A DNA stretch of 64,000 nt from Escherichia phage vB_EcoM_KAW3E185, in sequence record MK373782.1; one strand, given 5' to 3'. Below the pieces are notes generated by a model that saw only the letters and a list, made by a program, of their open reading frames with translations, made no database searches and was not told the origin of the DNA. Below, piece after piece: positions 36,733 through 41,352 of the stretch (within the stretch, counting starts at the first letter, position 1; the number at the start of each line of letters is the position of its first letter). Made by a program: the position numbers and the translations under genes.

Positions 36733-37038
36733 TTAGCACAACGCAGAAGACGAAACCCAAGCACCTTCAGTAATAACGTATCCATTACCTTCACGCTTAA
36801 CATCGCCGCCATTATTTTCAATTTCATCTTTCATCCACTGGGATACGATTTCACCCTTAGGATAATAAGTACGACCGCTACCATAATCACCTACAGAAAA
36901 TGATACGGCATATTGGTCTGCGATCTTTGTTGCTTCTTCTTCGATACGTTCAGCTTGATTCAGAAGTTTATAAATTGCATCTGAAGCGGATTTGGCATCA
37001 TTAAACTCTGGTACTTTAATTTCAATAATCTTACTCAT
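36733..37038 (-). CDS. hypothetical protein with conserved C-terminal tail (101 aa)
   Basis: Ends ...ITEGAWVSSSALC. Confidence 0.5.
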   Translation of the reverse strand: MSKIIEIKVPEFNDAKSASDAIYKLLNQAERIEEEATKIADQYAVSFSVGDYGSGRTYYPKGEIVSQWMKDEIENNGGDVKREGNGYVITEGAWVSSSALC

Positions 37039-37394
37039 TTTCTACATTCCTTAATAAAGTTTTCGATTGTTTCATTTTCACGTTTAGCTAGAAGTTCATT
37101 ATAACTAATCATTTGAGAAGCGTAAATCTTTTTATTTTTCTTGTTATGGTTTATAAAATCGTAGTAAAAATAGACTACAGTACAAAATGATGCGATGGAT
37201 GCAAAGGCTTGGGTATACCGTAAGTCCTGCCATTGGTCTGTGAATCCACCAGTGTTCCCTATAAATCCTAACACAACGCCGTCAATAAGAAATCCAACTA
37301 ATCCAAAGGCAAATCCCATGCCAATACTCATAATAAAAATTAGAATGTTCTCACCAAGAGAAGGCCATACGGTTAAGAGTTGAGGCTTTTGCAT
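37035..37394 (-). CDS. hypothetical membrane protein (119 aa)
   Basis: Glycine-rich hydrophobic N-terminal half; C-terminus IENFIKECRK. Confidence 0.5.
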   Translation of the reverse strand: MQKPQLLTVWPSLGENILIFIMSIGMGFAFGLVGFLIDGVVLGFIGNTGGFTDQWQDLRYTQAFASIASFCTVVYFYYDFINHNKKNKKIYASQMISYNELLAKRENETIENFIKECRK

Positions 37395-37768
37395 CTTATT
37401 TCCTTAACGAATTCCATAGCTTCTTCATATTCATACTTTTTAACAGCCTCGTCATATTGGGCTCTTGCTTTTGCACATTGAATTTTCCATTCACGTACTC
37501 GAGCTCTATAATGACGTCCTTGGTACCAATATCCCACCCAATTAATAGGCATTAATAAAAATGGCACAATAAACGACCCGGCTATAATAAGTAAAAACAC
37601 TGCATCAGACGATATAACTTCACTAGAATCTAAAACAGCTCCTATAATCATAAAGATTAAAAATGCTAAAGCTAAAATAGGGCCAAATAGTACTTCATTT
37701 GGGATTAATTTACGCTTGTATTCATACGCCCAGGGCTTACTTGGTATGTATAGGGTTGGCTTTGACAT
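37373..37768 (-). CDS. hypothetical membrane protein (about 131 aa)
   Basis: ATG at 37768 within the junction cassette; two hydrophobic segments. Confidence 0.5.
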   Translation of the reverse strand: MSKPTLYIPSKPWAYEYKRKLIPNEVLFGPILALAFLIFMIIGAVLDSSEVISSDAVFLLIIAGSFIVPFLLMPINWVGYWYQGRHYRARVREWKIQCAKARAQYDEAVKKYEYEEAMEFVKEIRCKSLNS

Positions 37769-38339
37769 ATTCTCTACATTCCATAATAAATTGCTCAAGG
37801 ATTAAATTGTTAGTGAAATTAGGACTAACAACCATGGTTTCATAAAGCGCATCAATAGCACTTAAAGCATCAACTCTTTTAAGCAAAGGCTTGCCTTCAT
37901 ACATAGTTTCAGAATCGACGATTAACGTAAAGTAATATTTTTTATTATCGACTAGAACTTCTGTATCGATATAAAACATATTAGACCTCAGAAGCTTATC
38001 TCTAAAACCATAATAATCTTCTGAACGTTCACTGATATATTCCCATTCAGTGTTTAAACAACAAACAGACCATGTAGGAGCAACGAAATCAGTGAATCTA
38101 ATATCATGGTCTGCAACTAGTTTAGCAATAGCTCCGATATCATGAATCATAATACCTGGGGCTAATAAAGATTTTCTGCTATGGCTAGCCGTTTTCTCAG
38201 TAGTCTCATAAGAAGACGACCAGTACCATTTACGTCCGGTTGCAACATATCGTAATGAATCAACTAAAGACGTAGGTGGATTTACCTTATCTCGGAACTC
38301 TTCGAACATTGAGTCAATATCATTATTTTGGTTTCGCAT
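37737..38339 (-). CDS. hypothetical protein (about 200 aa)
   Basis: ORF-track start is TTG; ATG at 38339 preceded by GGAG. Confidence 0.5.
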   Translation of the reverse strand: MRNQNNDIDSMFEEFRDKVNPPTSLVDSLRYVATGRKWYWSSSYETTEKTASHSRKSLLAPGIMIHDIGAIAKLVADHDIRFTDFVAPTWSVCCLNTEWEYISERSEDYYGFRDKLLRSNMFYIDTEVLVDNKKYYFTLIVDSETMYEGKPLLKRVDALSAIDALYETMVVSPNFTNNLILEQFIMECREYVKANPIHTK

Positions 38340-38356: not shown

Positions 38357-38380
38357 CCAAAAGGAGGACCGGAGTCCTCC
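38357..38380 (-). terminator. rho-independent terminator (minus strand)
   Basis: GGAGGAC...GTCCTCC hairpin followed by UUUUGG on the minus-strand RNA. Confidence 0.45.
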
Positions 38381-38388
38381 GTATTATT

Positions 38389-38982
38389 TTATTTCAAAGA
38401 GTTAATATATTCTTGTACATCAGCAGAAGTGGTTTCGACACCGGCTGGAGTGCCATTGAACGTTTCAACACGAGTCAGAGTGTCTTCGATATCAACCTTA
38501 GTCAGTGCAGCGATTTCAATTACATCATCAGCCGTAGAGATACCAAGGGCATTGGCTGCTCGAGTTTCACGAATGTATTCGAGTTTGATTGCCAGGTTCT
38601 GACGAGCATCGTCAAGTTCAACCACCTTACGAGCAATTTCAATTCGCATAGCGGCATACCCGTCAGCTTTTGTATTAAGTTGTTCGGCAGTTCGACGATA
38701 CAGAAGACCAAGCTTAGCATGCATGGTAACATCTTGTCCTTCGGCCAAGAGCTTACGAATTTCACGTTCCTTAGAAGCGGCTTGCTTATTCTTTTCAATA
38801 ACAAGTTCGCGAATACGTTTTTCTTCATTAATAGATTTAACAGAAGCCGTTTTTAGTTCTTTGATTTGGGTAATCAACTTATCTGCAGCTGCGTTATACT
38901 GTTCTTCGACAGTCAGATTTTTAGCCATAGCAGTACCCAGTTTAGTGCGGATGAATTCAACAAGTTTCTTCAGTGTGTTCAT
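38389..38982 (-). CDS. coiled-coil protein, PspA/IM30-like (about 197 aa)
   Basis: ATG at 38982; long amphipathic coiled-coil sequence throughout; family assignment from pattern only. Confidence 0.45.
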
Positions 38983-39017
38983 ATTATTACCTTTCAATTG
39001 GTGGTCTATTATCCAAT

Positions 39018-39052
39018 GAGAGCATTATACTCTGCTCTCAAGAGTTTGTAAA
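39018..39052 (-). promoter_or_regulatory. early promoter TTTACA-17-TATAAT (minus strand)
   Basis: Core TATACTCTGCTCTCAAGAGTTTGTA is identical to the copy at 10676..10711. Confidence 0.5.
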
Positions 39053-39280
39053 TTATTTTTTAATCAAATTGACATAAAACTCGGCGTCTTCTGGGTGCAT
39101 GCCTTCACAGTATTCTTCAACCATGAACTTCTTAACAGCTTCATAAGGACCACTCAGATTAAGCTCAGTTGTCCAGAACTTGGAATCTTGGACCGAATCG
39201 ATACGAACGTCAGGGTGACGGTTGCGAATAACTTCTTCAGTATATTCATAATCAACGACATCAATACTAACTTTAGCCAT
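39053..39280 (-). CDS. hypothetical acidic protein (75 aa)
   Basis: ATG start. Confidence 0.5.
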   Translation of the reverse strand: MAKVSIDVVDYEYTEEVIRNRHPDVRIDSVQDSKFWTTELNLSGPYEAVKKFMVEEYCEGMHPEDAEFYVNLIKK

Positions 39281-39308: not shown

Positions 39309-39338
39309 ACTATAACATAAACTTACTTAGATGTAAAT
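39309..39338 (-). promoter_or_regulatory. early-promoter-like sequence TTTACA-17-TATAGT (minus strand)
   Basis: Sequence pattern only. Confidence 0.35.
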
Positions 39339-39490
39339 TATTTCAACGTCACCTTTAGCGGCTTTATAACCTTCAGCCCAAGATACAACAGAGTTTTTAT
39401 CTGAGGATTCAAATTCAGGCATTGGACTTTCACCAATATTCACACAGTATGTTTCTTCATTTTCATCGAACCAAATAATTAAAGTAGTCA
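39326..39490 (-). CDS. hypothetical small protein (54 aa)
   Basis: ATG at 39490 preceded by GAGGAG; below the ORF-track threshold. Confidence 0.3.
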
Positions 39491-39510
39491 TTTTGTTTAC
39501 TCCTCTGTAG

Positions 39511-39559: not shown

Positions 39560-39865
39560 TTAATTTTTCCAACTTAACAACTTGTAGTGGCCTTCATTCA
39601 TACGTGGTTTATCCCAAGAAATACTAATATATGATTCACTGTCAATAGAAGTCGCCGGGTTTTTCTCTACCGTAAGACCTTCACTTTCCAGCCATTCAAT
39701 AGTATTTGCACATAAATCAGAAGAACACCTAATCGGAAACCGGCAAGATTTTTCACCTTTAGCTGCAGCGTTATACATCTTTTCTAAAATACGCTTTTGC
39801 ACGTTTTTAAAAATAGTTTCAGCAGATTCTTCGGATTTTTTATTCAGTTCAGTATAAAGACTCAT
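39560..39865 (-). CDS. hypothetical protein (101 aa)
   Basis: ATG start. Confidence 0.5.
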   Translation of the reverse strand: MSLYTELNKKSEESAETIFKNVQKRILEKMYNAAAKGEKSCRFPIRCSSDLCANTIEWLESEGLTVEKNPATSIDSESYISISWDKPRMNEGHYKLLSWKN

Positions 39866-39988: not shown

Positions 39989-40453
39989 TTATTTAATTTG
40001 TTTAGCAGACCAGATACGGTCTTTAATAAGTTTTTGGATATCTTCAACATACTCAAGGCTATGAGCGTGAGGATTATCTTTGAAACTACGTGCTCGTGCC
40101 AGTTTCTGGCCTTCTGTTTTGATTACTAAAAGCTCTTTAAGAATTGCTTCATACTTAGAAATAATTCCTTTAACGATATTTTTTTCTTGAGCTGTTTTAG
40201 GGTCAGTTTTTGGCGCAGGTGCTTTACCTGTAGCTTTCTGGAACAATTCACCTGATGCAGCTAGGCTTTTAAAAACTCGGCTAACAGTATTAGCATTAGT
40301 AAAACCTTCGGCTTTAAAATCTCTAATAAAACGGAAACGTTCTTCATCGGAGGCGTCTTTGTAAGAATATTTACCTGCTTGAATTGCTGCAATCGCAGCG
40401 GCTTTTACATCTGAACTAGATTGTTCAGTCAAAAATTCAGCGTATGATTTCAT
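39989..40453 (-). CDS. internal-protein-like gene with capsid-targeting-like leader (154 aa)
   Basis: Starts MKSYAEFLTEQ (variant of MKTYQEFI...E); Ala/Lys-rich. Confidence 0.5.
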   Translation of the reverse strand: MKSYAEFLTEQSSSDVKAAAIAAIQAGKYSYKDASDEERFRFIRDFKAEGFTNANTVSRVFKSLAASGELFQKATGKAPAPKTDPKTAQEKNIVKGIISKYEAILKELLVIKTEGQKLARARSFKDNPHAHSLEYVEDIQKLIKDRIWSAKQIK

Positions 40454-40565: not shown

Positions 40566-40722
40566 GCAAGTGTTTGTACGAAACGCCGGGATTCGAACCC
40601 GGTTATTAAGCAGTTGACGCTACTCAATATTTTTAAAAGGCCATATCTCGACCATATCCGAACGTTCCGTCAAAAACGCTACTCGGCTTACGGCAAAGAT
40701 ATTTCCTCGAATCGATAATTCG
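40566..40722 (-). ncRNA. tRNA-like structured RNA (about 155 nt; possibly a species-1/2-type stable RNA)
   Basis: Minus-strand RNA has 5' GAAACGGCG pairing with 3' CGGCGUUUCG (one mismatch) and a canonical T-arm CCGGGUUCGAAUCCCGG; boundaries approximate. Confidence 0.4.
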
Positions 40723-40832
40723 GTGCGCCGTTTCTGTTGTGATAGTAAAGAATCAGAACACAGTAAAACTGTGGGAGAAACTATACTCCAGGGAACATCA
40801 GTCCGACGACTTACCGGTAGCGACCCGGTTTC

Positions 40833-41177
40833 TCATTTTGGCATATCATCAATTTGCTCTCGACGCCGACGCCATAGATTAATCGCTTCATTAACACATT
40901 CGGCGTTTGGTATATGACGGCAATAATATAATGATTCGCGTTTCTGGAACCGATGTTGCAACGGGATTTCGTTTAAAAGATCTTTACGATCAAAGTATTC
41001 AAAACTAGTTAACCCTGAACGGTTTTTAATGAACTTCCAATGGCCGAATTCATTTTGAACATAGATGTAATCGGCATGCTGATAAAGTGAATTAATCAAT
41101 CGATGAGAAATAACTGTATCATATTCATTAAAATAAAACGTTAAATCATGAACTACCAAATAAATATTGCCTTTCAT
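40833..41177 (-). CDS. hypothetical protein (about 114 aa)
   Basis: ATG at 41177 preceded by GAGGA, just downstream of tRNA-Arg; the ORF track extends into the tRNA. Confidence 0.45.
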   Translation of the reverse strand: MKGNIYLVVHDLTFYFNEYDTVISHRLINSLYQHADYIYVQNEFGHWKFIKNRSGLTSFEYFDRKDLLNEIPLQHRFQKRESLYYCRHIPNAECVNEAINLWRRRREQIDDMPK

Positions 41178-41195: not shown

Positions 41196-41272
<77 letters not shown>

Positions 41273-41275
41273 GAT

Positions 41276-41352
41276 TGGTGACCCAGACCAGATTCGAACT
41301 GGTAACCTTTCCCTTATGAGGGGACTGCTGCTAACCGTTGAGCTACAGGGCC
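41276..41352 (-). tRNA. tRNA-Ile (anticodon CAU, Ile2-type)
   Basis: Minus-strand GGCCCTGTAGCTCAACGGTTAGCAGCAGTCCCCTCATAAGGG...TTCGAATC...CACCA; anticodon loop CUCAUAA; called Ile rather than Met from the T4 tRNA set. Confidence 0.75.

Follow-up and report, generated by a model that had tools for sequence, protein, structure and literature searches.

Gene e.6 of T4-like phages as a compact and very distant relative of the PspA/Vipp1 membrane-remodelling proteins

The stretch of DNA analysed here, 64,000 nucleotides of Escherichia phage vB_EcoM_KAW3E185 (sequence record MK373782.1; "the window" in the following), carries on its minus strand a gene of 197 codons which is the orthologue of the early gene e.6 of bacteriophage T4 and belongs to the protein family phrog_1203. 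A preliminary description, made from the sequence alone, had assigned the gene product by its overall pattern to the PspA/Vipp1/ESCRT-III family of membrane-remodelling proteins. Profile and structure comparisons support this assignment as one of remote homology, placing e.6 in the PspA/Vipp1(IM30)/ESCRT-III superfamily as a compact and strongly diverged protein, with homology shown for helices a0 to a3 only, i.e., for about the first 145 residues, which align in register from Met1. As regards function, we lean, with some reserve, towards the reading that e.6, as a compact, diverged PspA/Vipp1 member, protects the inner membrane of its host and sustains the proton-motive force early in infection. 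The gene, its flanking signals and the regions of its product are located as follows.

38389..38982, minus strand: coding sequence of e.6, 197 amino acids plus stop codon, from open reading frame (ORF) and translation; orthologue of T4 e.6, phrog_1203, remote PspA/Vipp1 (ESCRT-III superfamily) homologue
38990..38995, minus strand: Shine-Dalgarno-like GAAAGG, from sequence reading, 7 nucleotides 5' of the ATG; AAGG also present in T4
39024..39052, minus strand: predicted sigma70-type promoter of the T4 early class, TTTACA-17-TATAAT, 11/12 consensus matches
38363..38380, minus strand: intrinsic-terminator-like hairpin GGAGGAC-UCCG-GUCCUCC, then UUUU; 7-bp GC-rich stem right after the e.6 stop codon, -14.4 kcal/mol, z -2.55
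38917..38979, minus strand: residues 2-22, basic N-terminal helix, putative counterpart of the membrane-binding helix a0, from AlphaFold2 and in-register alignment with Vipp1/PspA a0 from Met1
38743..38910, minus strand: residues 25-80, helix a1, first hairpin arm, AlphaFold2 predicted local distance difference test (pLDDT) 73-96, aligned to PspA/Vipp1 a1
38548..38727, minus strand: residues 86-145, helix a2/a3, second hairpin arm, with the hairpin tip at residues 81-85 containing a conserved Gly
38392..38547, minus strand: residues 146-197, acidic and conserved module at the C-terminus with a net charge of -7, in which a segment of low confidence is followed by two short predicted helices (166-175, 186-196)

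The reading frame runs from the ATG at 38982-38980 to the TAA at 38391-38389, in exact agreement with the coordinates of the preliminary description, in which the strand had been left unstated. Five codons 5' of the ATG lies an in-frame TTG, from which a product of 202 amino acids would result; this codon is not regarded as the start, since the alignment with T4 is conserved only from the ATG onwards and the AAGG of the Shine-Dalgarno sequence is placed 7 nucleotides 5' of the latter. The window protein and T4 e.6 (NP_049742.1, UniProt P39224; positions 69312-69905 of the T4 genome) are both 197 amino acids long and share 88% identity with zero gaps; in the PHROGs, residues 1-197 align with positions 1-199 of the 200 positions of the phrog_1203 profile (E 1.7e-86). 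The preliminary description knew of no such gene in T4; T4 does have it, under the name e.6. At a dN/dS of 0.07 versus T4 e.6 (dS ~1.15), the gene is shown to be real and under strong purifying selection. Its product is rich in charged residues (32%, comprising 32 K+R and 31 D+E), has a single Pro and is devoid of Cys and Trp.

Among the PHROGs, phrog_1203, labelled "unknown function", was the sole family matched by the window protein, and Pfam searches with 24 e.6 relatives yielded scattered coiled-coil noise only. A shallow profile of close e.6 relatives (A1) recovered Vipp1 chains from the PDB only at E-values of 1.4-2.8, yet these matches were collinear from the N-terminus, which made them a lead worth pursuing, if not usable alone. 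It was the exhaustive search with A1 that supplied divergent family members and, thereby, allowed a deeper profile to work—A2, an alignment of 48 sequences of the e.6 family including divergent representatives (down to 17% identity). When 177,635 PDB sequences were searched with A2 (hmmsearch), Vipp1/PspA chains were the best eight, ahead of all other coiled coils, with E-values of 3.8e-5 for 8qfv, 1.2e-4 for 9eom and 8qhv, 2.1e-4 for 7o3w, and 1.7e-3 for 6zvr. In this alignment, residues 1-146 of e.6 are matched with residues 1-147 of Vipp1, interrupted by a single indel of 3-4 residues at the hairpin tip.

For profile-profile comparison with HHalign, a combined PspA and Vipp1 profile was used, comprising 44 sequences, all with PF04012, with the Vipp1 seed taken from the PDB alignment. 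Against this profile, A2 reached a probability of 95.2% in local mode (P 2.7e-8, score 58.6; 136 columns from Met1) and of 96.9% in global mode, at an identity of ~10% across the aligned region. Reversing one profile, regardless of which, reduced the score to 13.7-15.5, while reversing both brought it back to 52.8. Forty heptad-block shuffles scored 16.5 +/- 2.6 (maximum 22.6), placing the real score ~16 standard deviations above them, and shuffles of 21-column blocks, in which real local blocks are kept, scored 28 +/- 4 (maximum 43). These controls show that the match between e.6 and PspA/Vipp1 is not a matter of coiled-coil composition bias. The search with PspA/IM30 profiles that had been proposed as a check, hence, has a divided outcome, in that Pfam and NCBIfam gave no match, while the 48-sequence profile and HHalign did.

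The same results bear on the reading of e.6 as a generic coiled coil with an unrelated role—e.g., as a scaffold, an adaptor or a "host specificity protein"—whose likeness to PspA/Vipp1 would be convergent or functionally meaningless. Such a reading can draw on the negative outcome for PspA in Pfam and NCBIfam, on the simplicity of the hairpin fold, and on the label "host specificity protein" given to e.6 homologues by some GenBank and UniRef records. Other records have "hypothetical" instead, and none of the matches listed bears the name PspA. However, a generic coiled coil would hardly account for a collinear match of 136 columns that starts at Met1, exceeds the heptad-block shuffles to the extent given above and is lost upon reversal of either profile, nor for the precedence of Vipp1/PspA over all other chains in the PDB search. 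Besides, the "host specificity" label had no domain match in any library searched; it was tried as a candidate function and rejected for want of a supporting domain in Pfam, PHROGs or NCBIfam, and it appears to be a propagated annotation error. Nor is e.6 known to be among the virion proteins of T4. Overall, we consider a generic coiled coil very improbable.

Structure prediction lends independent support to the profile comparisons. Two AlphaFold2 runs, based on 24- and 48-sequence alignments, yielded the same topology consisting only of helices (residues 2-22, 25-80, 86-145, 166-175 and 186-196), which bears out the earlier characterization of an all-helical, charged protein. Confidence is highest in the core of the hairpin (pLDDT above 90, against a mean of 78) and low for residues 1-20 and 150-180. 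The long a1 / a2-a3 helical hairpin of the ESCRT-III superfamily (~55+60 residues) is present in the predicted structure, and in a Foldseek search of the PDB Vipp1 took all of the first eight places (probability 1.0, E-values of 1e-3 to 1.5e-2), with the archaeal ESCRT-III protein CdvB2 next; the structure prediction suggested in the preliminary description, thus, spoke for its assignment. In the viral structure library BFVD, members of the e.6 family came first, then one unnamed entry; the first annotated matches after these were from a giant virus ("Snf7 family protein") and from Acinetobacter phage ME3 ("PspA/IM30 family protein").

With regard to the individual regions, the predicted helix a0 has a pLDDT of ~50, a net charge of +4 (family median +4) and a hydrophobic moment of 0.35 (range 0.35-0.43), compared to 0.40 for PspA and 0.50 for Vipp1. 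At the hairpin tip, the motif G-(E/D)-E-x-LAR-E-AL is matched in its Gly and its hydrophobic pattern, with "geevvkthakLaLlykr" aligned to "NGE---ENLAREALARKK", while a 3-residue indel is required and the polar residues differ. The C-terminal module is as conserved as the helices, with a pLDDT of 47-62 at residues 150-180. Charge is unevenly distributed along the protein, amounting to ~+8 in the N-terminal part and -7 in the C-terminal part (family medians +5 / -7).

Among the known systems, Vipp1/IM30 (Synechocystis sll0617, PDB 7O3W/8QFV; Nostoc 6ZVR) is the best match of e.6 by sequence profile and by Foldseek alike. Helices a0, a1 and a2/a3 align from residue 1 to ~146, as does the Gly at the hairpin tip, and both proteins have a basic N-terminal and an acidic C-terminal part; the charges of Vipp1 (+5 / -10 to -12) are similar to the family medians of e.6, unlike those of Escherichia coli PspA (-2 / -4). 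On the other hand, identity between e.6 and Vipp1 is ~10-17%, and e.6 is 60-70 residues shorter, has a shortened a4-a5 region and lacks the Vipp1-specific C-terminal extension; moreover, it is encoded by a virulent phage, whereas Vipp1 is encoded by a cyanobacterium or a plastid. E. coli PspA (4WHE; PF04012), the phage-shock effector and regulator, is a weaker match than Vipp1 (E 3.7 for 4whe in the PDB search), and it belongs to the psp operon, while the e.6 locus is without psp operon context and without PspB, PspC or PspF neighbours. In HHalign, A2 matched Vipp1 alone with 94.4% (P 8.8e-8) and enterobacterial PspA only with 42-47% (P 2e-4), the latter profile being shallow (Neff 1.3); PspA and Vipp1 profiles matched one another with 99.8% (P 3e-29, score 188). 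The stronger match to Vipp1 (rounded, 94%, P 9e-8) than to enterobacterial PspA (47%, P 2e-4) marks e.6 as a deep or fast-evolving outlier and not the outcome of a recent capture of the host pspA gene. Eukaryotic and archaeal ESCRT-III proteins (Snf7, CHMP1B, CdvB2) have no PspA-type a0 at Met1, and the relation of e.6 to them would be at superfamily level only. A phage-borne member of the superfamily is also known from Acinetobacter phage vB_AbaM_ME3 (A0A172Q0S7), a structural neighbour of e.6 in BFVD (E 4.6e-3); it is annotated as PspA/IM30 and has a normal length of 229 amino acids, in contrast to e.6, which constitutes a separate, far more diverged family that is missed by routine annotation.

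This comparison bears on a further reading, in which e.6 is a regulatory mimic or decoy that keeps only the PspA hairpin surface and, by binding PspF, PspB/C or PspA, silences, hijacks or poisons the envelope-stress response of the host, without itself protecting the membrane. The a1-a3 hairpin region of PspA contacts PspF, and the homology of e.6 spans just this hairpin, the region crystallised as PspA(1-144) (4WHE), while no conservation can be recognised in the a4-a5 region, on which polymers of PspA/Vipp1 depend; the early expression of e.6 would also suit a decoy. However, a mimic should resemble the host protein, and e.6 is much nearer to Vipp1 than to host PspA by both HHalign and the PDB search, with an identity of ~10% to PspA/Vipp1 in the aligned region. 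Furthermore, a basic helix aligned with the membrane-type a0 is retained family-wide, and repression of PspF would add little in a host whose transcription is shut off by T4 anyway. A decoy function is, hence, judged unlikely.

Beyond the gene itself, the window shares ~97% identity with several T4-like coliphages, among them O157 typing phage 3, APCEc01 and JK45; its source is a phage of this kind and not T4 itself. The e.6 protein was found by tblastn in 1,101 phage records. In the data assembled here, the family is restricted to phages and comprises Straboviridae of Enterobacterales and Aeromonas as well as a divergent branch in the Ackermannviridae, where kage_131 of the Salmonella phage kage (Kuttervirus; L003 3501-4109) matches phrog_1203 with E 1e-66; in Kuttervirus, the family is patchy, being present in 4/15 genomes (PMC9409062). 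The record of Aeromonas phage 65 uses the very name e.6 for its homologue.

Synteny common to the window and T4 comprises e.5, e.4 and e.3 downstream of e.6, and rnaC/rnaD together with tRNA genes upstream. Upstream of e.6, T4 also carries e.7 and e.8, which have no counterpart in the window, their DNA giving no match anywhere in it; this position is occupied by other genes:

39053-39280, 39327-39491 and 39560-39865, minus strand: in the position of e.7/e.8, one gene of the FRD3 family (PF05798, E 3e-38) and two short ORFs belonging to phrog_5461 and phrog_18312

The missing e.7/e.8 match and the presence of other ORFs in their place suggest that the region just 5' of e.6 is a replacement hotspot, with e.6 itself being fixed. 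Farther upstream, at 39989-40453 (minus strand), lies an ORF of 154 amino acids belonging to phrog_2280 (unknown function), whose N-terminus MKSYAEFLTEQ resembles the N-terminal leader at which the prohead protease cleaves the T4 internal proteins IPII and IPIII; this ORF may be a gene of the internal-protein type in a position different from that in T4. At 40569-40838 (minus strand), there is a sequence 89% identical and homologous to rnaC/rnaD of T4, small stable RNAs also called species 1 and 2, next to tRNA-Arg and tRNA-Met (41196-41352). No Rfam 15 family matched it at gathering score, and conserved phage RNAs of the rnaC/rnaD type appear to be uncurated in Rfam.

Downstream of e.6, the orthologue of e.5 (37737-38339, minus strand; phrog_2607) shares 47% identity with T4 e.5 and has no match in Pfam. 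Beyond it, two small hydrophobic ORFs occupy the positions of e.3 and e.4 (37035-37394 and 37373-37798, both minus strand; phrog_2330 and phrog_2604); they overlap one another and e.5, have long hydrophobic, transmembrane-like stretches, and lie ~0.6-1.3 kb downstream of e.6, past its terminator. As candidates for PspB and PspC, these small membrane proteins were rejected, no matches being found. Rejected, too, was a two-gene module of e.6 and e.5: e.5 has its counterpart in T4, but the ORFs that follow e.6 in Aeromonas phage 65 and in Kuttervirus kage are not conserved with it, the latter phage having a different protein, a membrane protein, in this place. BLASTP revealed no similarity between e.5 and the ORF 3' of e.6 in Aeromonas phage 65 (L002 4628-5359), while weak matches of both to phrog_13418 (E 6.6e-4 and 1.6e-4, respectively) hint at a very distant shared downstream neighbour. 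Altogether, e.6 does not have the same neighbours in T4-like phages, in Aeromonas phage 65 and in the Ackermannviridae, and this lack of conservation across phage groups fits an autonomous function of e.6.

The gene is flanked by signals of its own. The predicted promoter bears out the promoter cassette that the preliminary description had placed directly 5' of the ORF. An A-rich tract precedes this promoter, which begins 1 nucleotide past the stop codon of the upstream gene; its T4 counterpart reads GTTTACA-17-TATTAT. In the corresponding 3' position, T4 e.6 has a different stem, GGGGC-UUCG-GCCCC, a type of T4 hairpin that is among the predicted terminators in PMC5931544. Between the window and T4, the function of these signals is conserved, while their sequence is not. 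As read from the sequence, e.6 is, thus, shown as an independently transcribed unit with its own putative sigma70-type early promoter and its own putative terminator hairpin. In the supplementary files of a time-resolved omics study of T4 (PMC9697503), e.6 (P39224) is classed as "early" for RNA and as "middle" for protein, with detection by mass spectrometry; hence, the protein is made. The main texts of that study and of the DksA paper are without mention of e.6, which is included in the omics supplements.

These expression data have to be considered with regard to a third reading, put forward in the preliminary description, namely that e.6 is a lysis-timing factor that modulates the holin T, the antiholin RI or the late state of the membrane. 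In T4, e.6 is located ~2.3 kb from the endolysin gene e, and PspA-type proteins counter a collapse of the proton-motive force, the very event that triggers holins; in addition, e.6 gave weak, non-significant coiled-coil matches to Rz-like spanin/LysB profiles (E 0.04-0.4). Against this, e.6 has an early promoter in a unit that looks monocistronic, its RNA is classed as early, and it is not transcribed together with the late lysis genes. Neither is it linked to t, rI or spanin genes, and in Aeromonas phage 65 and Kuttervirus it is found among replication and early genes; the spanin matches are far below significance and concern only a short coiled-coil stretch. We, therefore, deem a role in lysis timing quite improbable.

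The link between e.6 and PspA is correct but already known, since two papers, from 2021 and 2022, independently report the same HHpred link. A genome announcement on the Klebsiella phage Metamorpho describes gp163 as a T4 e.6 homologue with an HHpred probability of 99.9% to E. coli PspA 4WHE_A (PMC7862958). In a study of Salmonella phages from 2022, phrog_1203, represented by Gp_125 of Kuttervirus SeF3a, is described as homologous to PspA and hypothesized to counter abortive infection by preserving the proton-motive force (PMC9409062). Phage-encoded members go unmentioned in a review from 2025 on the ESCRT-III-like systems of bacteria and archaea. The relationship is missed by routine annotation (Pfam, NCBIfam, PGAP), up to the point that some records are mislabelled, as described above. 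This has a bearing on how the assignment is to be judged: absence of PspA/IM30 profile similarity had been named as the result that would refute it, and as PF04012 misses the e.6 family, such a verdict by routine tools would wrongly reject the assignment.

Several observations weigh against e.6 being a PspA/Vipp1 homologue that protects the membrane. For the window protein, there was no match to PF04012 (PspA/IM30) or to Snf7 by hmmscan of Pfam at E<=10, and no PspA match in NCBIfam; PF04012 was also absent among the 25 of 60 matched Pfam families listed for 24 e.6 relatives, so that, in the strict sense, e.6 is not a member of PF04012. When 1.84 billion representative proteins were searched exhaustively with A1 (hmmsearch), 45 clusters were obtained, all of them e.6-like (~195-205 amino acids) and none PspA. 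In the reciprocal direction, a PspA/Vipp1 hidden Markov model scored single e.6 sequences with 17.8 bits at best (decoys <=10.3), and the window protein was not listed. When the family was split for HHalign, the T4/RB69-like half alone gave 17%, in contrast to 95.6% for the divergent half alone. Concerning the regions of the protein, the hydrophobic moment of a0 is not significantly above that of shuffles, 18% of which reach 0.35. The C-terminal 52 residues compared to PspA a4-a5 in HHalign gave P 0.038 over 17 columns, with only DVxxYLxSLK placed on VxDELAxLKA, and the module alone showed no similarity in PDB or Pfam; with a C-terminal region that is shorter than the polymer-contact a4-a5 of PspA/Vipp1 and without significant similarity to it, polymerisation is not assured. 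Finally, there was no PspB/PspC Pfam match among the neighbours of e.6, which are phage ORFs (e.5, e.4, e.3, FRD3), and the literature search retrieved no functional study of e.6, no e.6 phenotype, and no membrane-binding or assembly data.

As the signal comes via the divergent members of the family, the link of the window protein to PspA/Vipp1 is a transitive one. The highest reciprocal scores (17.8 bits, P0180 and P0182) stem from divergent copies of the Ackermannviridae type, and judged from these comparisons it is the latter that form the bridge making the PspA/Vipp1 homology detectable. These bridging relatives are unambiguous members of the e.6 family, with E-values of 1e-18 and below in the exhaustive A1 search.

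If e.6 indeed protects the host membrane, a sequence of events can be envisaged by analogy with its better-characterized relatives. Early in infection, e.6 would attach through its basic helix a0 to the inner membrane of the host on the cytoplasmic side and would self-assemble via the hairpin, as do PspA and Vipp1; the assembled protein would then stabilise or repair the membrane and keep up the proton-motive force during phage replication. By analogy with Vipp1 and ESCRT-III, whose C-terminal parts are likewise acidic, the C-terminal module probably serves to control assembly or to make contact with adjacent subunits or with a partner. Host transcription is shut off by T4-type phages, and the host pspA gene is dependent on sigma54 and PspF. 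A copy of its own makes sense for the phage, as the host pspA gene would not be inducible once transcription is shut off; in this way, e.6 may stand in for the host Psp response. Viable T4 deletions between e and the tRNA genes point to e.6 being dispensable in the laboratory; if this is right, dispensability would fit a conditional role related to stress or defence. In a more specific version, published as a hypothesis (PMC9409062), e.6 would blunt abortive-infection systems that kill by membrane depolarisation.

A more far-reaching proposal, which we put forward tentatively and hold to be possible without expecting it, would see e.6 as a minimal, autonomous ESCRT-III-superfamily polymer of T4-like and Vi1-like (Ackermannviridae) phages that is deployed within minutes, seals the inner membrane and replaces the silenced Psp response. 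It might explain the "resealing" of the membrane described for T-even phages and/or neutralise depolarising abortive-infection effectors, and the acidic C-terminal module might be a new element for assembly control or partner binding.

T4 is the best-studied virulent phage, and about half of its genes are without an assigned role. Few of these are as widely conserved as e.6, which occurs in more than 1,100 phage genomes of the Straboviridae and of some Ackermannviridae. It is a good candidate for phage-driven membrane protection and not a discovery. If true, lytic phages would actively maintain the membrane integrity and the proton-motive force of their host, which would bear on phage energetics, superinfection, the control of lysis, and the escape from membrane-depolarising defence systems.

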